Shown piece by piece: positions 14,334 through 44,563 of a stretch of 64,000 nt of DNA. The notes under the pieces were generated by a model. The model was not told the DNA's origin. It made no database searches and was given only the letters and a program-made list of their open reading frames with translations. Source of the DNA: a virus; IMG/VR virus record IMGVR_UViG_3300032287_003559, positions 32,001 through 96,000 of that record; one strand, given 5' to 3'. Each line of letters opens with the position of its first letter. Position 1 is the stretch's first letter. Both the position numbers and the translations under genes were made by a program.

Positions 14334-14888
14334 ATGACGCATAGACCAGTTGGGGCTGGGTCCTCATTCACATTTACTGCAGGAACTGCATCAACTTCAT
14401 CTACATTTTCAGTTCAATCTGATACTTTAAGAGTTGTTGCTGTTGGTAACGCTGCACATGTTGCAATTGCAGCAAGTCCAACTGCATCAACAACTGATTA
14501 TTATATTCCCTCCGGAACTGCAATAACTCTTGCATTGACTAAAGCATCTAATAGAGTTGTCGGTGTTACTACAGGAACATCAACGATTCTTACCTTTGCA
14601 GAGGGAACTCAGGCACCTTTCGGTGTTGGTGATTATATTAGTTTAACTGCAAATGCACAGTCATATTATAACTTTACTCACCAACAAGTTACGTCAGTAG
14701 ATACTACTTCTGGCATAAATGGATTTTTCCAAGGGAGAATTGTTGTAAGTTATGATTCAAGTGGAATTGTAACTTCCTTCTCTTCTCCAAATGCAACAGC
14801 AGTTATTTCTCAAAGAATTTCTGCTTATGGCGCAACTGGAGATGGATCACTTTATTATCAGCAAGTACAAATTACCAACCAAGCATGA
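14334..14888 (+). CDS. Hypothetical virion structural protein
   Basis: 184-aa Thr/Ser/Ala-rich ORF, late promoter upstream, coupled to gp21. Confidence 0.7.
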   Translation: MTHRPVGAGSSFTFTAGTASTSSTFSVQSDTLRVVAVGNAAHVAIAASPTASTTDYYIPSGTAITLALTKASNRVVGVTTGTSTILTFAEGTQAPFGVGDYISLTANAQSYYNFTHQQVTSVDTTSGINGFFQGRIVVSYDSSGIVTSFSSPNATAVISQRISAYGATGDGSLYYQQVQITNQA

Positions 14889-15538
14889 TGAAACTTATCA
14901 CAGAAGAAATAGAATCAGTAGAAGTTATTTCTGAAAATGTAAACGGTAAAAAGACTCTGTATATTCAAGGACCTTTCCTTCAGACTGAGCAACCAAATAG
15001 AAATAACAGAATATATCGTCTTCCAGTAATGGAAAGAGAAGTTAAAAGATATACTGAACAGTATGTAAATAAGGGACGTGCTCTTGGCGAACTTGGTCAT
15101 CCAGATGGACCAACTGTAAATCTTGATAGAGTTTCTCATAAGATCGTTTCACTTCATCGTGAAGGAAATAACTTCATTGGAAAAGCGCAGATTCTTTCCA
15201 CTCCTATGGGAAAGATTGCAGAATCTCTCCTTAAGGAAGGCGTAACTTTGGGAGTTTCTTCTCGTGGAATTGGATCTCTAAAACCAACTCGTGAAGGATA
15301 TAACGAAGTAGGCGAAGATTTTATGCTTGCAACTGCTGCTGATATTGTCGCTGATCCTTCTGCACCTGATGCTTTTGTTCAAGGAATTATGGAAGGAAAG
15401 GAGTGGGTATGGGATGGTGGGGTTTTGAGGGAGAAAGAAGCAGAAAACACTAGACGCAGAATAAACACTCTTGTTGATGAAGGAATTCTTGAAGAGTATA
15501 AAATATCATTATTCAATGAGTTTTTAAATTCATTGTAA
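14885..15538 (+). CDS. gp21: Prohead protease gp21
   Basis: MKLITE start, ALGELGHP, GVSSRG.GS, DIVADPSAPDAFV. Confidence 0.97.
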   Translation: MMKLITEEIESVEVISENVNGKKTLYIQGPFLQTEQPNRNNRIYRLPVMEREVKRYTEQYVNKGRALGELGHPDGPTVNLDRVSHKIVSLHREGNNFIGKAQILSTPMGKIAESLLKEGVTLGVSSRGIGSLKPTREGYNEVGEDFMLATAADIVADPSAPDAFVQGIMEGKEWVWDGGVLREKEAENTRRRINTLVDEGILEEYKISLFNEFLNSL

Positions 15539-24765: not shown

Positions 24766-24987
24766 ATGCAAGTCCCAAACTGGAAGCACCATTCCAAGAA
24801 AGAACAGAAACGAAAACTTAAACCGCAAGCACTGAGGCAAGCAAAAGCACGACTAGCCCAGTTCAAAAAGCGTCACATGGGTCGCCCACAAGGCGACCTT
24901 TCGTTTTATGATGGTCTCATACGAAACAAATCCAATGGCTGTCAATCACGAAATCAAGTCTCAACTCGCCAAGTTGCTTGCGACTGA
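24766..24987 (+). CDS. Small basic hypothetical protein
   Basis: PNWKHHSKKEQKRKLKPQALRQAK; the 3' part overlaps a hairpin and the next gene, so the functional end is uncertain. Confidence 0.55.
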   Translation: MQVPNWKHHSKKEQKRKLKPQALRQAKARLAQFKKRHMGRPQGDLSFYDGLIRNKSNGCQSRNQVSTRQVACD

Positions 24988-27124
24988 AGACCTTGTAGTA
25001 GAGCACAAGAAGGTTGAGACTGCCTGCTTTAACGTTCATACGAGGGTTTTGACTCTTCCGATGTGGGAGCGTGCTTCTGGGACCGTCTACGACCTTCTGG
25101 TGGGGCATGAGGTTGGACATGCACTCTTTACCCCCGATGAGGATTGGACTGAAACTGTAAAGGTTCCTCCGCAGTTTGTGAATGTGGTTGAGGATGCTCG
25201 CATTGAGAAACTGATGAAGCGTAAGTATGCTGGACTTGCTAAAACTTTCTTCTCTGGTTATAAAGAACTGAACGAAGAAGATTTCTTTCAACTTGAAGAT
25301 GAAGATGTTTCCAAGTTTAATCTTGCTGACAGGGCAAACCTTTATTTTAAGGTAGGTAATTTTCTTTCTCTTGAGTTTACTGCTAAAGAGAAGGAGATTA
25401 TTGACCTGATTGCAGTTTCTGAAAGTTTTGCAGACGTTCTGATTGCTGCAGAAGAACTTTACAAGTATTGTAAGAAAGAAAAGGAACAAGAAAAGGTTGA
25501 TGAGATTGAAACTCAACAACCTCAAGGTTCTGCAACTTCTCCTACTGAGAATCAATCGGATGAAGGTGAAGGTGATAGTGAAGAAGAAGGTAAAGCAAAT
25601 AAACCCGATACAAATGGTGAGTTGGATGAAAACAAATCTTCCGATAGTAGTCAGCAATCTACTTCTTCTAATGTGAGTGTAGATGAAGAACCTGAAATCA
25701 AGACTGTAGATAATCTTGAGGATAAAATCCGTGAGCTTGTAAGTAAAGATGGATATGAGAATGTCTATGTTGAAGTTCCGAAAGTAAATCTGGAAACGAT
25801 TATCGGCAAGAACTCTGAGATTCATAAAGAGATTACTGGTGCTTTTAATCAGCAACAGAACTCTTACAATGAGTGTAACAACACCACTTCAGTTGATTTG
25901 TTTAAAGAAGCAGATACTTCTTTCCGTCAGTTTAAAGTTTCCGCTCAAAAGGAAGTGAACTATCTGGTGAAAGAGTTTGAGTGCCGTAAGTCTGCGGATT
26001 CTTATGCTCGTGCATCTACTGCTCGCACTGGAGTTCTTGATACTGCTCGTCTTCATTCTTACAAGTTCAGTGAGGATTTGTTTAAGAAAGTGACTGTGCT
26101 TCCTGATGGTAAAAATCATGGACTGATTTTCATTCTGGATTGGTCGGGTTCTATGGCTAATGTTCTTCTGGATACTTGCAAGCAACTCTTTAATCTGATT
26201 TGGTTCTGTAAGAAAGTTTCTATTCCTTTTGAGGTTTATGCTTTCACAAATGAATGGCGACGTAACGCATATGATTATGAAACTGGGAAACATGTTGCAG
26301 CAGACCGTACCTCTCACTATGAAAAGAAAGAAGGTGTGTTTTGTATTGATGAAGACTTTGCCTTGATGAATATTCTCACCAGCAAGGTTTCTGGTAACGA
26401 ACTGGAAAAGCAACTGATGAATATTTGGCGTCTTGCTGTGTATTTTGGAGATACTTATCACACTCCTTATACTTGTCCTTCTCGTCTATATTTGTCTGGA
26501 ACTCCTCTAAATGAAAGTTTGGTTGCTCTGCATCAAATTCTTCCCAAGTTTCAAAGTGAGAATAAACTGCAGAAGGTTCAGTGCGTGATTCTGACTGATG
26601 GTGAAGCAAACGTTCTTCCTTATCATAAAGAAGTGAAGCGTGCTTGGGAAAAACAACCTTATCTTGGAGTTCATGGTATTGGTTCCAATTCTTTTCTGCG
26701 AGATAGGAAACTTGGAACTACCTATAAACTGGATGGTGTTTATCAGGGATATCATAAGTTCACTGATGTGATGCTTCTCAATCTTCGTGATAAGTTTCCT
26801 TTTACAAACTTCATTGGTATTCGGGTTCTTTCCAGCCGTGACGCATATCGCTTCATTAGTCTCTATCATTCTGCTTCTGATGAAGACTATAAGCAGTACA
26901 TTAAAATTCAGGATGATTGGAAGAAACTGAAGAGTTTCACGATTACCAAATCTGGATATCACGCTTACTTTGGTCTTTCTTCCTCTGCTCTGTCTCAAGA
27001 TGCTGAGTTTGATGTTTCAGAATCTGCAACAAAAGCACAAATCAAATCTGCTTTTGTGAAGTCTCTGAAGACTAAGAAACTTAACAAAAAGGTTCTTGGT
27101 GAGTTCATTTCTCTTGTTGCATAA
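24935..27124 (+). CDS. Metallopeptidase-like plus VWA domain protein (CobT-like partner of CobS)
   Basis: HEVGH (HExxH), NVVEDARIE, acidic linker, MIDAS DWSGS, GTPL, LTDGE. Confidence 0.85.
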   Translation: MAVNHEIKSQLAKLLATEDLVVEHKKVETACFNVHTRVLTLPMWERASGTVYDLLVGHEVGHALFTPDEDWTETVKVPPQFVNVVEDARIEKLMKRKYAGLAKTFFSGYKELNEEDFFQLEDEDVSKFNLADRANLYFKVGNFLSLEFTAKEKEIIDLIAVSESFADVLIAAEELYKYCKKEKEQEKVDEIETQQPQGSATSPTENQSDEGEGDSEEEGKANKPDTNGELDENKSSDSSQQSTSSNVSVDEEPEIKTVDNLEDKIRELVSKDGYENVYVEVPKVNLETIIGKNSEIHKEITGAFNQQQNSYNECNNTTSVDLFKEADTSFRQFKVSAQKEVNYLVKEFECRKSADSYARASTARTGVLDTARLHSYKFSEDLFKKVTVLPDGKNHGLIFILDWSGSMANVLLDTCKQLFNLIWFCKKVSIPFEVYAFTNEWRRNAYDYETGKHVAADRTSHYEKKEGVFCIDEDFALMNILTSKVSGNELEKQLMNIWRLAVYFGDTYHTPYTCPSRLYLSGTPLNESLVALHQILPKFQSENKLQKVQCVILTDGEANVLPYHKEVKRAWEKQPYLGVHGIGSNSFLRDRKLGTTYKLDGVYQGYHKFTDVMLLNLRDKFPFTNFIGIRVLSSRDAYRFISLYHSASDEDYKQYIKIQDDWKKLKSFTITKSGYHAYFGLSSSALSQDAEFDVSESATKAQIKSAFVKSLKTKKLNKKVLGEFISLVA

Positions 27125-27151
27125 ATACCTAAAAAGTATTTCTGCGTAAAA

Positions 27152-28000
27152 ATGAGAACCTATCAAGAATTTGTTTCTGAAATGACCTATGGTAGAGGTC
27201 GTGGACCAATCGGTAGAGCAGATAGGAACAGTGGTAGAAATCGTTATCTGGGGTCTCCTACACCAGAACAGGAAAGAGAAAACAAATCTGCAGCAGATAA
27301 AGCTGCTGCAGATGCTGTTGCAAAATTAAGAAGAGCAAGAGCAAGAGAAATGAAGGAAGAGGTAGAACTTGATGAAGGTATGACGATGAAGGACTTTAAG
27401 GCAAATCGTCAGAAGAATAAAAGAAGAGCTGCTTCTGCCGATGCTGTGAAGAGAGGTCATGTAGGTAAGGAATGGTATAACAGCGGTAGAAAGTATTCTC
27501 CAGATGAAGCAAAGAGAATGCGTTCAAAACTGGATGATGAAGAAAGACGTACAAGACATCGTAGTGCTGTAGAACCTGATAATGAGAGTGATGATAACTT
27601 CTCTGCAGACAAGACGAAGAATCCAAAGAAACTCCGTAAGCAAAAAGCGATGGGAGAACTTGGTGAAGCATTAGATAAAAAATTCGATTCTATGAGAAGT
27701 CGTGGTGGAAGAAGTGCTCCTCCAGAAGAGCGTTCTGTTGGTGGCGAAATGAATAGAAAAAGTAAGGATTATTGGGCGGATACTTTAGGTAAGAATAGAG
27801 ATAGAGGAAAGGGTAGTAAAGCAAAAAGAAGAGCTGCGGCACTTGGGGAGGATAACGTTCAGGAGTTATTCATTACAAGAAAATCTCCAGAACAAAAAGC
27901 AGATGAGGCAAGAAAGAAAAAAGTAGCAACACTCATTCGTTTAATGCAACACGCAAAAGACCCTGCTGCTGATGTTGCTAAGTCCAAAAAGGAAGGTTGA
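27152..28000 (+). CDS. Basic modular protein with capsid-targeting-like N-terminus (putative internal head protein)
   Basis: Starts MRTYQEFVSE (T4 internal-protein CTS is MKTYQEFIAE); ATAAATA late promoter at 27121. Confidence 0.75.
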   Translation: MRTYQEFVSEMTYGRGRGPIGRADRNSGRNRYLGSPTPEQERENKSAADKAAADAVAKLRRARAREMKEEVELDEGMTMKDFKANRQKNKRRAASADAVKRGHVGKEWYNSGRKYSPDEAKRMRSKLDDEERRTRHRSAVEPDNESDDNFSADKTKNPKKLRKQKAMGELGEALDKKFDSMRSRGGRSAPPEERSVGGEMNRKSKDYWADTLGKNRDRGKGSKAKRRAAALGEDNVQELFITRKSPEQKADEARKKKVATLIRLMQHAKDPAADVAKSKKEG

Positions 28001-28026: not shown

Positions 28027-28049
28027 GGGGTCTCTAGGACCCCTTTTTT
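28027..28049 (+). terminator. Intrinsic terminator
   Basis: GGGGTC...GACCCC hairpin plus T6. Confidence 0.75.
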
Positions 28050-28087
28050 GTCCTATAATAACTTCAGTGAAACAAACCACTCACATC

Positions 28088-29215
28088 ATGACTCGCACTA
28101 AAATGACTGACGACCAAATCCTTGAGGACCTCAAAAATACTTTTGGAAAAGAATTCACTGCTGCCGATGTTCGCGGATACTGTGCTGCTAAAAGCATCTC
28201 CTATCAAACTGTTACTAAGCGACTGGAGCAGTTTAAAGTTGGTCGTGGTAAGTGGAATCTGGAAGTGACTCAAAAGAAAGTGGAAGAAATCGAACGTTCC
28301 TTTAATTCCGTTGCTGTTCTTCCTGAAGTACATCAAAACCTCATTCCTGATAAAGATGATACCTTCGTCAAGTTTGGTAACTTTAACGATATTAAAAAGA
28401 TTATTCAGTCCCGTCTCTTTTATCCTACGTTCATTACGGGTCTTTCGGGTAACGGTAAAACGTTCAGTGTGGAGCAAGCGTGTGCTCAGCTTAAGCGTGA
28501 ACTCATTCGTGTAAATATTACGATTGAGACTGATGAGGATGATTTGATTGGTGGTTTTCGTCTTGTGAACGGTGAGACTGCCTGGCACAATGGTCCTGTG
28601 ATTGAGGCACTTGAGCGTGGTGCGATTCTGCTTCTGGACGAGATTGACCTTGCTTCCAATAAGATTCTTTGCCTCCAGTCTGTTCTTGAGGGTAAAGGTG
28701 TCTTCCTCAAGAAGATTGGTCGTTTTGTAAAACCTGCCGCTGGATTCAACGTGATTGCTACTGCAAACACGAAGGGTAAGGGTTCTGATGACGGACGCTT
28801 TATTGGTACTAACGTTCTCAATGAGGCATTCTTGGAACGCTTCCCTGTGACCTTCGAACAGTCTTATCCTGCTCCTGCAGTAGAGCAGAAGATTCTGGAA
28901 TGTATTGCTCTGGACCTAGGTGTGGAAGACCGCGACTTCTGTAAGCGTCTGGTTGACTGGGGTGATATCATCCGTAAGACCTTCTACGATGGTGGTATTG
29001 AGGAAATCATCAGCACCCGCCGACTGGTTCATATCATCCGTGCTTACAGCATCTTTGGTGATAAAGCTAAAGCGATTCAAGTTTGTGTGAATCGTTTTGA
29101 TGATGAAACTAAGCAAGCATTCTTGGAACTGTATGATAAAGTTGATGTTGACTTTGTGATGCCTAGTAATGAGATGCAGGTTGAGGGTCTTCTTGACGAA
29201 CAACCTCAATCTTGA
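28088..29215 (+). CDS. cobS: CobS/MoxR-like AAA+ ATPase
   Basis: GLSGNGKT, LLLDEID, TANTKGKG, NEAFLERF, STRRL motifs. Confidence 0.9.
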   Translation: MTRTKMTDDQILEDLKNTFGKEFTAADVRGYCAAKSISYQTVTKRLEQFKVGRGKWNLEVTQKKVEEIERSFNSVAVLPEVHQNLIPDKDDTFVKFGNFNDIKKIIQSRLFYPTFITGLSGNGKTFSVEQACAQLKRELIRVNITIETDEDDLIGGFRLVNGETAWHNGPVIEALERGAILLLDEIDLASNKILCLQSVLEGKGVFLKKIGRFVKPAAGFNVIATANTKGKGSDDGRFIGTNVLNEAFLERFPVTFEQSYPAPAVEQKILECIALDLGVEDRDFCKRLVDWGDIIRKTFYDGGIEEIISTRRLVHIIRAYSIFGDKAKAIQVCVNRFDDETKQAFLELYDKVDVDFVMPSNEMQVEGLLDEQPQS

Positions 29216-31831: not shown

Positions 31832-32700
31832 AATCTCTTAAGACACCGTTGCGCTATCCTGGAGGCAAGTCCCGTGCTTGCGTCAAAATGGATCCATACT
31901 TCCCAGATCTCCGTAACTATGATGAGTTTCGTGAACCATTCTTGGGTGGTGGTTCTGTTGCTATTCACGTTACAAAGAAATATCCTTTTCTTAAGATTTG
32001 GGTAAATGATCTATATGAACCTCTGGTGAACTTCTGGCAACAACTCCAGATGTTTGGTCCTGAACTTAAGGATCATCTTCTACATTTTAAGAGTGCTTGC
32101 CCTGATCCTTTGTCTGCACGGGGATTGTTTGATATTTCAAAAACTATTCTGGAAGATCCTAATACTGGGGATTTTGAAAGAGCGGTAAGATTTTATATTG
32201 TAAATAAGTGTTCTTTTAGTGGTCTGACTGCAAGTTCTTCTTTCTCACCTCAGGCATCTAATTCTAACTTTAGTGTTCGTGGAATTGAAAAACTCCCCGA
32301 GTATGCTAAGTTAATTGAAAAGTGGCGTATAACTAATTACTCTTACGATTACTTGATGGATGGAGACAAGAGTGCTTTTATGTATCTCGATCCTCCCTAT
32401 GATATTAAGGATAATCTCTATGGGAACAAGGGATCAATGCATAAAGGATTTGATCACGATAAGTTTGCTGCCGATTGTGATTCCAACAATATGGATATGT
32501 TGGTGAGTTATAATTCTGACCAACTGGTAAAGGATAGGTTTAAGAATTGGAACGCTGCTGAGTTTGATCTCACTTATACGATGCGTTCTGTTGGTGAATA
32601 TATGCGAGAGCAAAGACAACGTAAAGAACTGCTGCTGTTTAATTATGGAATTGAAGGACTGGTTAAACTCGATCAATCAGACAAAACAGAATCTAATTGA
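31828..32700 (+). CDS. dam: DNA adenine methyltransferase (Dam/D12 class)
   Basis: LRYPGGKS, EPFLGGGSV, YLDPPY motifs. Confidence 0.92.
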   Translation: MKSLKTPLRYPGGKSRACVKMDPYFPDLRNYDEFREPFLGGGSVAIHVTKKYPFLKIWVNDLYEPLVNFWQQLQMFGPELKDHLLHFKSACPDPLSARGLFDISKTILEDPNTGDFERAVRFYIVNKCSFSGLTASSSFSPQASNSNFSVRGIEKLPEYAKLIEKWRITNYSYDYLMDGDKSAFMYLDPPYDIKDNLYGNKGSMHKGFDHDKFAADCDSNNMDMLVSYNSDQLVKDRFKNWNAAEFDLTYTMRSVGEYMREQRQRKELLLFNYGIEGLVKLDQSDKTESN

Positions 32701-33025
32701 TGAGAATCCATCAGTAGAGAAGGAATACGCACCATATATTATCAATCGCTGTCTCTCTGGGCATATTGATTGCATTATGTTTGCGAATGAAATGAATATC
32801 AGTCATCATTTAGATAAAGATATGCAATATTCATTTTATCTAAATATTCTTAGGAAACGGAAGAGATTTTCTCCGTGGCTCCGTAAGGATAAAGTTGCAG
32901 ACTTAGAATGTATTAAACGTTATTATGGATATAGTAATGAAAAGGCATCCCAAGCTCTGAAAATCCTAACAAAGGAACAAATAAATTTTATTAAAAAACG
33001 ACTTGAAATTGGAGGAAAAAAATGA
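32645..33025 (+). CDS. gp62: Clamp loader small subunit gp62
   Basis: ELKDWLNSIN, Y.PYIINRCLS, RKRKRFSPW, YYGYSNEKA. Confidence 0.92.
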   Translation: MELKDWLNSINQTKQNLIDENPSVEKEYAPYIINRCLSGHIDCIMFANEMNISHHLDKDMQYSFYLNILRKRKRFSPWLRKDKVADLECIKRYYGYSNEKASQALKILTKEQINFIKKRLEIGGKK

Positions 33026-41164: not shown

Positions 41165-42085
41165 ATGGAAGGCAAGCACATAAAAGATTTGATGGAAGCA
41201 TATTTGCAAATGTATGCTCCTAAAGAAGAAATTGAAGAAGGCAAATCTTCCAGACCACGCTATCCTGGTGGTAGAGGTGTATTAGACCAGGAAAGAAGAG
41301 ATGAAAAGAGAGAAGCATCTGCCGAAAACATGCGCGGTCATACTGCAGGTGCTGGTACAGTAACAAAAAATCCAAAGAAACTCCGTAAGCAAAAGGCTAT
41401 GGGAGAACTTGGCGAAGCAGTAAAGGGTGCTGACCCAGAAATGAGAAAGGCAGCATCTGCAGAAAGAAGAGCGGGTGATAAACCTCTTTCTAAAAAAGTT
41501 GGTGATGCACACGCTGCTAATATGGCAAGAAAGATTAGATTTTCTGATAAAGTTACCAAAGCAAAGGGTCATATTCCTGGATATGCTTATGCTGAAGAAG
41601 TAGATATCTTTGATGTTGTCCTTGAGTTCCTCCAAGTAGAAGGTATTGCAGATACTCTAGAAGAAGCAGCATGGGTAATGGCAAATCTTATTGATGAAGA
41701 GATTGTTTCTGATATTCTTGATGAAGCATCATACTCTGCAAAAGCAGCAAGAGCAGGTAAGGATATTGGTAAACCTGGTAAAGCATTTGCAAAGATTGCT
41801 GCTTCTGCCGCTAAGCGTTATGGATCTAAAGAGCGTGGTGAAAAGGTAGCAGGTGCAGTTCTTGCAAAACTTCGTAAGGAAGAAATAGAACTACTTGACG
41901 AGGTATTAGATACTCCTGAAAAAGCAAATGAATATGCCAAGAAGAATGTAAAATCTATGCTTGGTGCTTTCGCTAAAGGTGTTGTGAATAAAGATATGAG
42001 TCAAATGAAAACTATTAAGAAAAGAACTGAAGGTGCAAAGATGGCAAAAAGAAAGGCAGAAAGAAAGGCAGCAGAAGAAAACTAA
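41165..42085 (+). CDS. Basic modular protein (putative internal head polyprotein)
   Basis: Late promoter; K/R/A-rich modules separated by IEE, LGE, LDE; shares a 19-aa module with 27152..28000. Confidence 0.75.
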   Translation: MEGKHIKDLMEAYLQMYAPKEEIEEGKSSRPRYPGGRGVLDQERRDEKREASAENMRGHTAGAGTVTKNPKKLRKQKAMGELGEAVKGADPEMRKAASAERRAGDKPLSKKVGDAHAANMARKIRFSDKVTKAKGHIPGYAYAEEVDIFDVVLEFLQVEGIADTLEEAAWVMANLIDEEIVSDILDEASYSAKAARAGKDIGKPGKAFAKIAASAAKRYGSKERGEKVAGAVLAKLRKEEIELLDEVLDTPEKANEYAKKNVKSMLGAFAKGVVNKDMSQMKTIKKRTEGAKMAKRKAERKAAEEN

Positions 42086-43288: not shown

Positions 43289-44563
43289 ATGAAAAGTTTC
43301 CTTAATTTTCTAACTGAAGCAAAAGAATCGCAGGCAGCAATGCAAGCGAAAAAACTTGGATATACTGGAGACGGTCATGGCGGATGGTTAGATCGTTCCG
43401 GTAAACTTGTTGCAAGAACAGATAAAGGAAAACTTAAGTATATTGATGGACGCCAACCAAAAGGCGCAGAACAACCCGCAGGACAAGCACCTACAGGAGC
43501 AGCAGCATCCTCTCCCCAACCAACTGCAGCAGCACAAGCACCTGCACCACAACCTCAAGCAGCGCCAGGACAAGCACCAGAAGAGCAACCTGCAGAAGAA
43601 CTCCCACCACTTACTGTTGTCTTTGGTCGATTCAATCCACCAACAGTAGGACACGAAAAACTTCTCAAGTCCGCAAAGAGAATTTCTGCTGGTGGAGATA
43701 TTAAGATATATCCTTCAAGAACTCAAGATCCAAAGAAGAATCCTTTAGATCCAAATTCTAAAGTTTCATACATGAAAAAAATGTTCCCTGAGTTTGAGGA
43801 GAACATTATTAATGATGATGATATGAAAACAATTTTCGATGTTCTTGTAAATGCTAATGAAGATGGATATACAAATGTAAATATTGTAGTTGGTTCAGAT
43901 CGTCAAGCAGAATTCGAAAACCTAGCACAAAAGTATAATGGAGATCTTTATACCTTTGACCAGATCCGCGTAATCTCTGCTGGAGTAAGAGATGCTGATG
44001 CTGAAGGTGTTGAAGGAATGTCAGCATCTAAGATGAGACAGGCAGTGATGGATGATGACTTTAAATCATTCCGCAGAGGAACTCCAAAAACACTTGATGA
44101 TGGAGAAACTCAAGCACTTTTCAATGCTGTTCGTCAAGGAATGAATGTTAAGAAATCAAAAGTCAAGAAAGAATCATACTCTTTATGGGAGATTGCTCCA
44201 AAGTATGATATGAGAAATCTTCGTGAGAATTATGTAAGAGGAAAAATATTTAATATTGGTGATAAGGTCGAGAACTTAAATACTGGATTGGTTGGTGAAG
44301 TAATGCGTAGAGGAACTAATCATTTAATTTGTGTAACTGAAGAGGGTTATATGTTTAAGTCTTGGATTAAAGATGTGATGGAAGCATACCAAGAAAAAAA
44401 AGTCGATTCTATTCAAAGAGTTTCTGGAAAACCTAATACTTTGGTTGGAACTGAAGGATTCAGAAAACTTGCGATGAAGATGGCTTCCACAAAAAGGATT
44501 ACTAATTTTAATGTTGAGCAATTCATAAATAAGTATAAGGCAAAGAAAGTAAGTACTTATTAA
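43289..44563 (+). CDS. Cytidylyltransferase-like (HIGH-superfamily) nucleotidyltransferase
   Basis: FGRFNPPTVGHEKL, VVGSDR, MSASKMR; CTS-like start MKSFLNFLTEA; P/A/Q-rich linker. Confidence 0.85.
   Translation: MKSFLNFLTEAKESQAAMQAKKLGYTGDGHGGWLDRSGKLVARTDKGKLKYIDGRQPKGAEQPAGQAPTGAAASSPQPTAAAQAPAPQPQAAPGQAPEEQPAEELPPLTVVFGRFNPPTVGHEKLLKSAKRISAGGDIKIYPSRTQDPKKNPLDPNSKVSYMKKMFPEFEENIINDDDMKTIFDVLVNANEDGYTNVNIVVGSDRQAEFENLAQKYNGDLYTFDQIRVISAGVRDADAEGVEGMSASKMRQAVMDDDFKSFRRGTPKTLDDGETQALFNAVRQGMNVKKSKVKKESYSLWEIAPKYDMRNLRENYVRGKIFNIGDKVENLNTGLVGEVMRRGTNHLICVTEEGYMFKSWIKDVMEAYQEKKVDSIQRVSGKPNTLVGTEGFRKLAMKMASTKRITNFNVEQFINKYKAKKVSTY

Follow-up and report, generated by a model that had tools for sequence, protein, structure and literature searches.

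The 64,000-nucleotide stretch analyzed here (the window; positions 32,001 to 96,000 of IMG/VR record IMGVR_UViG_3300032287_003559) carries the structural and replication region of a T4-like phage of cyanomyovirus type, whose whole genome is 175,135 bp long and whose nearest cultured relatives are S-SRM01 and S-SZBM1. Our subject is P0001, the 282-aa protein of the open reading frame (ORF) 27152-28000, together with the related genes found elsewhere in the same genome; positions are those of the window unless another record is named. An initial annotation had drawn this ORF as 27121-28000. Its end stands, but the true ATG lies at 27152 and the earlier start takes in the promoter region. The gene does lie between a VWA-type gene and cobS, as that annotation had it, and MRTYQEFVSE, given there as the N-terminus, is read at residues 1-10 (Table 1). 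The gene was further said to have its own late promoter and terminator. The terminator is present, as a GGGGTC...GACCCC hairpin followed by a run of six T 3' of the stop codon. As to the promoter, the motif CATAAATA is found 25 nt upstream of the ATG, but with one mismatch to the T4 consensus. The motif NATAAATA occurs 21-34 nt 5' of all four named family genes as well as of the genes for sheath, portal, core and scaffold; 24 copies lie on the plus strand and 4 on the minus. Near the family genes the exact T4 motif TATAAATA was found only at P0003, and across the window it showed no over-representation (7 found, 5.2 expected), so that the promoter argument rests on position and strand. Judged by these promoter-like motifs, expression of P0001 and the other family genes would be of the late type.

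In T4 the capsid targeting sequence (CTS) docks a protein onto the prohead scaffold core and is then removed by the prohead protease gp21, whose specificity is the motif [ILV]xE. We compared the start of P0001 with the N-termini of internal proteins (IPs) in the T4 reference (NC_000866), which are MKTYQEFIAE for IPII and IPIII and MKTFKEFTS...ITE for IPI. Seven of ten residues are identical to IPII/IPIII and the remaining three are conservative exchanges (K2R, I8V, A9S); Y4, F7 and E10 are unchanged, and position 8 is Val for Ile. In the T4 CTS, positions 4 and 7 matter for targeting and positions 8 and 10 for processing (Mullaney and Black, reviewed in PMC9026906). The pattern [KR][TS][FY]xx[FY][LIVMT]xE gave two matches in the six-frame translation of the whole genome, both at residue 2 of an ORF (27152 and 43289). 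That the leader of P0001 is a T4-type CTS is supported by this comparison. The second leader-bearing gene encodes an NMNAT/cytidylyltransferase-like protein that is probably a packaged enzyme; it carries an FGRFNPPTVGH motif, and AATAAATA lies 21 nt upstream of it.

P0001 is strongly basic (isoelectric point 10.07, net charge +24, 72 Lys and Arg versus 48 Asp and Glu), and Pfam and PHROG searches matched it to no family. The AlphaFold2 model, built on an 89-sequence alignment, showed isolated helices without a globular fold (mean predicted local distance difference test score 61.7, predicted template modelling score 0.21), and the chain is predicted to lack a stable fold. Module borders were set from an alignment of eleven relatives, in which modules are either there or missing whole, as cassettes, and they divide the protein into the leader (residues 1-10) and modules A (11-75), B (76-172), C (173-233) and D (234-282). 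Five [LIV]xE motifs are present in P0001, four of which (E10, E75, E172 and E233) fall on these borders, set independently by the homologues. The earlier description of K/R-rich modules with no enzyme motif, separated by acidic sites, is borne out.

Relatives of P0001 are numerous and share it in pieces. A word-indexed search returned 285 relatives, most of them sharing about 35-40% of P0001 at 75-90% identity within otherwise differing proteins of 158-494 aa. In the exhaustive search, which gave 173 clusters at 50% identity, residues ~68-172 (module B) were found anywhere in proteins of 44-1012 aa, and in IMG/VR module B is encoded at 247 loci, 75-99% identical. The homologues are thus not collinear, in agreement with the shuffled modules first proposed, and by these alignments the mix-and-match mosaicism of the P0001 family appears real. 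In P0079, for example, module C stands straight behind the leader, which reads MKTFQEFILVVE and is followed by ALDPKF.

The same triplet precedes the modules wherever they occur. At 191 starts of module B, Glu precedes all 191 and I/L/V/M occupies the P3 position in 189, spread over 113 different upstream contexts; the triplet comes from the N-terminal leader itself in 36 cases, as in MKTFQEFMVIAE followed by GMTMKDF. Copies of module D are preceded by [IV]xE (34/34), and the S-adenosylmethionine (SAM) lyase domain of relatives starts behind [LIVM]xE (29/29). Taking nine module starts together, [LIVM]xE precedes 315 of 361 occurrences, as compared to a background of 2.2%. Since the anchors for this nine-module test had been chosen by eye, we added a second test without such choice, in which 9-mers following [LIVM]xE in the first 30 residues of leader-bearing proteins were collected and their preceding context was checked where they recurred deep inside other proteins. 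The motif stood before 258 of the 282 internal recurrences, versus 11 of 9012 control 9-mers from the same proteins. Natural C-termini (...KAMGELG, ...KAMGEH) coincide with the predicted module-end cut. Furthermore, some chains contain internal leader-like sequences (KAMGE, then MVSFSDFMEA), and S-SZBM1 gp194 has ITYREFIAE, then G, ahead of a lyase-like domain; such sequences point to fusion and fission of tagged units. On the simplest reading, units would be equivalent whether they stand alone with a tag or are chained behind a cutting site. A strictly stand-alone protein consisting of leader and module B only was not found in the family set. Automatic 6-mer boundary calling overshot by several residues and was used only for picking examples. 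A feature search of the ESM Atlas with module B yielded no more than leads, scoring 0.82-0.83.

Virion proteomes of relatives provide the strongest, though indirect, support for tag-directed loading of cargo into cyanophage heads. Mass spectrometry (MS) of S-SCSM1 virions purified on caesium chloride (CsCl) detected ORF29, ORF89, ORF91 and ORF92 (PMC9602691). ORF29, located ahead of terL, is a homologue of P0002 in which the segment order is shuffled; ORF89 has the leader type and synteny of P0003 and weak similarity to it; ORF91 is an NMNAT that starts MKSFLQFLKE and is 64% identical to the product of the gene at 43289; and ORF92 shares 42% identity with the first half of P0004. On absence from virions, which the initial annotation had listed as counting against packaging, relatives of three of the four family genes (ORF29, ORF89 and ORF92) are thus MS-detected virion proteins. 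In CsCl-purified S-CREM2 virions, MS detected the SAM hydrolase/lyase gp6 (19 peptides), gp12, gp13, the kinase gp14 and the cytidylyltransferase gp154 (PMC10665884). The start of gp6 is MKDFDSFLEE, with the lyase domain (PF23780) right behind this leader and at a locus different from that of P0001, while gp13 starts MKDLHSFLTE, gp14 (V)KRFDAFLTE and gp154 MKNFSSFLTE, and the Cas9-like gp12 has ...LRFASFMAE near its start. The S-CREM2 paper makes no mention of a targeting tag or N-terminal leader (PMC10665884). The strict DNA pattern MKxFxxF[LIVM]xE matched just two genes in each phage, gp6 and gp154 of S-CREM2 and ORF30 and ORF91 of S-SCSM1, with zero matches for reversed-pattern controls. 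Three of these four strict-leader genes are MS-detected in virions; ORF30 (106 aa) is not among the MS-detected proteins (PMC9602691). We also noticed that a leader MKx[FL]xxF[LM]xE is common to most of the MS-detected 'non-structural' virion proteins of S-CREM2 (gp6, gp12-gp15, gp154).

When 252 family proteins were searched by tblastn against the whole genome, exactly four genes were found, those of P0001 to P0004, at the very loci where a dispersed family had first been noted. The accompanying claim that all four have the same architecture holds for the shared modules, but the T4-type leader is present only in P0001 among them (and in the gene at 43289). P0003 and P0004 begin with other conserved N-terminal types, not T4-type, and the N-terminus of P0002 is DUF5661. 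The 19-aa tail of module B, TKNPKKLRKQKAMGELGEA, is identical at 27614-27670 and 41363-41419, with unrelated flanks; at the DNA level 52 of 57 nt match, and all five differences are synonymous, at third codon positions. A module of S-SCSM1 ORF30, which has its own leader there, is internal in P0002.

The presumed processing machinery is present as well. Both gp21, matched as Peptidase_S77 at the position where it was first annotated (phrog_207, PF03420), and the scaffold gp22 (phrog_237) are encoded in the genome of P0001. The known maturation cut of T4 gp23 lies in GSFLTE, then A; this site is kept here as GSFLSE, then A. Of nine long module-B records in IMG/VR (56-284 kb), eight have a gp21-type protease.

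At the locus of P0001, close relatives carry an enzyme. Two further contigs, L004 (218 kb) and L006 (10.9 kb), show the same order, with a 730-aa gene, a leader-plus-modules gene ending in the S-AdoMet_lyase domain (PF23780), a 60-aa ORF and cobS. The L006 protein, P0006, matches P0001 at 97% identity along the full 282 residues and then extends 159 further. Positions 3817-4455 of L006 are absent from the window, with AAG/TTG microhomology at the joint, and the PF23780 domain is absent from P0001 (no Pfam match; deleted relative to L006 and P0006). By this clean 640-bp deletion as compared to L006, the window copy is a lyase-less derivative. Other lyase-less forms exist, one of 282 aa at 98% identity from another sample and others of 276 and 200 aa. 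Between P0001 and L006 the ratio of non-synonymous to synonymous substitution rates (dN/dS) is 0.16 (14 synonymous and 9 non-synonymous differences).

Table 1. Features of the P0001 locus, the related genes and the surrounding head-gene region (positions in the window; single numbers as noted for the gene)
Feature	Position	Strand	Description	Basis or match
terS	3282
P0002	3757..5433	+	558 aa, between terS and terL; N-terminal DUF5661, C-terminal DUF6321	shuffled homologue of S-SCSM1 ORF29
terL	5451
portal	10249
gp21	14885..15538	+	prohead protease, Peptidase_S77; presumed processing enzyme	phrog_207, E 2e-81; PF03420, 3.6e-34
gp22	15594		scaffold	phrog_237
gp23	16804
Upstream neighbour	24908-27124		738 aa, VWA/peptidase-like	phrog_459; PHROGs call is peptidase
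Late-promoter-like motif	27120..27127	+	CATAAATA; ends 25 nt 5' of ATG	one mismatch to T4 TATAAATA
P0001 coding sequence	27152..28000	+	282 aa, leader and four basic modules	ORF; dN/dS 0.16 vs L006 orthologue
Leader	27152..27181	+	aa 1-10, MRTYQEFVSE; T4-type CTS ending VSE (supported)	comparison with T4 IPs
Module A	27182..27376	+	aa 11-75, net +3, ends EEVELDE
Module B	27377..27667	+	aa 76-172, net +10, GMTMKDF to KAMGELGE; most conserved	homologue alignment
Module C	27668..27850	+	aa 173-233, net +8, ALDKKF to AALGE	follows leader directly in P0079
Module D	27851..27997	+	aa 234-282, DNVQE then LFITRK	equals linker before SAM-lyase domain in relatives
Deletion junction	27993..28000	+	640 bp absent (lyase domain and 60-aa ORF); new stop codon created	blastn jump, L006 3816 to 4456
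Intrinsic terminator	28027..28049	+	GGGGTC / GACCCC hairpin and TTTTTT	read from sequence; kept in L006
Downstream neighbour	28067-29215		cobS/MoxR-type ATPase	AAA_5 and CbbQ_C
P0003	41165..42085	+	306 aa, ..LMEAY.. type-2 leader; exact TATAAATA 22 nt upstream	syntenic with S-SCSM1 ORF89
Second leader-bearing gene	43289..44563	+	424 aa, NMNAT/cytidylyltransferase-like, starts MKSFLNFLTE	64% identical to S-SCSM1 ORF91 (virion protein)
P0004	44565..46070	+	501 aa, MSINPLNDIS type-3 N-terminus	42% identical over 268 aa to S-SCSM1 ORF92

Combined together, we consider it probable that P0001 is made late by a T4-like cyanophage as an internal head protein targeted to the capsid, and that it is packaged, cut at [ILV]xE and ejected with the DNA; the packaging, the cuts, the ejection and the role of the peptides are what we infer from the comparisons above. 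The CTS, formed by the first ten residues, would direct P0001 to the prohead scaffold core, where gp21 would remove the leader. As each module starts right behind [ILV]xE, the specificity of gp21, the chain is probably cut after these motifs into basic peptides of ~65, 97, 61 and 44 residues, which would stay with the DNA in the head and leave with it at infection. The basic modules are candidates for charge neutralisation of the DNA or of the very acidic scaffold, or for action on a host target; we favour co-ejected peptides associated with DNA or scaffold, while anti-defence would be exerted mainly by the enzyme domains of relatives. The P0001 gene is part of a large recombining pool of such putative cargo genes of aquatic T4-like phages; close relatives at the same locus carry a SAM lyase, a domain that P0001 has lost through the 640-bp deletion.

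We considered whether processing stops at removal of the leader, the case for T4 IPIII, leaving one basic, disordered internal protein of ~30 kDa in which the junctions are leader relics or recombination joints. T4 internal proteins are indeed cut only at the CTS, and the internal leader-like sequences show that chains are built by fusing tagged units. Relics should decay, yet ~357 of 361 junctions have Glu at P1 and P3 remains I/L/V, with the middle residue of the triplet free to vary across more than 100 upstream contexts; together with natural C-termini that match predicted cut ends, this makes removal of the leader alone unlikely in our judgment. A protein that is never packaged, such as a late cytoplasmic DNA- or RNA-binding protein whose leader likeness serves another purpose, would equally be basic and without a stable fold, as P0001 is. 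This would leave unexplained why the leader pattern stands at two ORF starts only in 175 kb and why three of four strict-leader genes of S-CREM2 and S-SCSM1 are virion proteins by MS, with zero matches for reversed-pattern controls, and we regard it as quite improbable.

If the SAM lyase was the functional unit, P0001 might be a decaying remnant, a leftover carrier part without a role after the 640-bp deletion, and the deletion did remove the only recognisable enzyme domain. The frame is intact, however, and the promoter and terminator are kept; the same 282-aa form recurs at 98% identity in another sample, independent lyase-less forms of 276 and 200 aa are known, and conservation of module B extends to many proteins in which no lyase was ever present. 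The dN/dS of 0.16 also speaks for constraint, though it is not confined to the period after the deletion. We hold such a remnant to be the least probable of these explanations.

The reading of P0001 as a packaged and processed head protein has points against it, which we set out here. P3 of its leader site is Val, where T4 has Ile or Leu, and its promoter, CATAAATA, differs from the exact T4 consensus. Module B dominates the junction statistics, the remaining modules still giving ~79% in the unbiased test, and each module may simply carry the [ILV]xE triplet along by descent, without selection for cleavage there. Breakpoints of BLAST high-scoring segment pairs among the 252 proteins fell within 3 aa of a site in 17-19% of cases versus 11% in the null, only ~1.6-fold; this analysis is noisy because the acidic linkers are themselves shared, and it was replaced by the anchored tests. 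One module-B carrier, a 205-kb contig estimated to be 78% complete, is without a gp21 match, the sole exception among the long records. Records of 35-38 kb from Pelagibacter and Prochlorococcus phages, presumably podophages, likewise contain the DUF6321 module of P0002, so that not every module need be tied to gp21 or a T4-type head pathway. Finally, with its enzyme domain lost, P0001 itself could be on the way to decay.

A tag of T4 type, a protease and diverse injected cargo are classic T4 biology (PMC3012670, PMC9026906, PMC12373910); in T4 the injected IPs block nucleases of the GmrSD type (PMC3012670, PMC12373910). P0001 shares with IPI, IPII, IPIII and the CTS proteins of T-even phages the tag M-K/R-T-Y/F-Q/K-E-F-x-x-E ending in a gp21 site, and with the IPs the character of basic, non-essential-looking cargo at variable loci, with expression predicted to be late here as well, the cargo being otherwise unrelated. 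It differs in that each T4 IP is one small folded protein with a single cut, whereas in the P0001 family several modules are shuffled, every one following an [ILV]xE of its own, and are highly conserved across many phages, and in that the host phage is a cyanophage-type T4 relative. The T4 core proteins gp22, gp67 and gp68 and the inner-head proteins of phiKZ/SPN3US are cut by the head protease at multiple sites (PMC5694885). Multiple head-protease cuts in the prohead, giving small fragments, are predicted to be shared with P0001, but those proteins are scaffold or inner-body parts and the T4 core is largely acidic, while P0001 pieces are basic, shuffled and combined with enzymes. SAM lyase is an anti-restriction enzyme in phage T3 (gp0.3; PF23780). 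Orthologues at the P0001 locus end in this domain and a leader-tagged one is present in S-CREM2 virions; the T3 enzyme, however, is early and cytoplasmic, whereas here it would be pre-made and head-delivered, and P0001 is without the domain. What is new with respect to T4 is therefore the chained, shuffled build delimited by protease motifs, the very conserved basic modules and the cyanophage-type setting with enzyme cargo. No report of CTS or internal head proteins in cyanophages was found in the searchable literature, the coverage of which is incomplete, and the evidence for novelty is accordingly weak.

Extending this beyond P0001, we tentatively propose, as a possibility held with less confidence than the reading of P0001 itself, that aquatic T4-like phages possess a protease-programmed cargo system. 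In such a system cargo modules, which may be basic peptides as well as enzymes (among them SAM lyase, NMNAT-like transferase and kinase), would be carried alone or chained behind the tag and gp21-site linkers, released in the head, injected, and reshuffled at the linkers as a counter-defence and DNA-handling library. If true, a simple rule (leader plus [ILV]xE linkers) would predict the cargo of abundant ocean and lake phages and account for the SAM lyase and NMNAT-like transferases that recur in cyanophage virion proteomes. It would also highlight a very conserved set of basic peptides and extend T4 capsid targeting, in polyprotein form, far past the T-even coliphages.

Some minor observations were made on the genes discussed above. 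For the 738-aa upstream neighbour of P0001, Pfam gave no match at E 1e-3; by eye it contains HEVGH (HExxH, zinc-peptidase-like) and DWSGSM (DxSGS, resembling the VWA metal ion-dependent adhesion site). The N-terminus of gp21 (14885-14935) reads MMKLITEEIESVEVISE, with LITE and VISE motifs nearby that parallel the LIE-9 site discussed for autocleavage of T4 gp21. In the 62-kb IMG/VR contig G008 (the record of L010), the gp21 match at 32112-32852 contains two in-frame TAA stops, which could reflect a broken gene, an assembly error or another cause. The likeness of the type-2 leader to the N-terminus of T4 gp67 (MEGLIEAI...) was left as an unsupported impression. A type-2 leader together with module B is present in P0038, at 10001-10645 of L007, a 262-kb contig of a jumbo T4-like phage, where dozens of tiny ORFs surround the gene and methyltransferase and restriction-like genes lie next to it. 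The DUF6321 module of P0002 (5190-5433, ~70 aa, with SLRAWNC at its end) is found at 63-90% identity across hundreds of cyanomyoviruses, and in Pelagibacter phage Greip the DUF6321 match lies under a gene annotated as RecA-like. S-SCSM1 ORF93 (L003 7557-7766), a 69-aa DUF3008 virion protein, ends in the leader-like sequence KKRTFKEFLEYIE at its C-terminus and looks as if it had been split from a following tagged unit.

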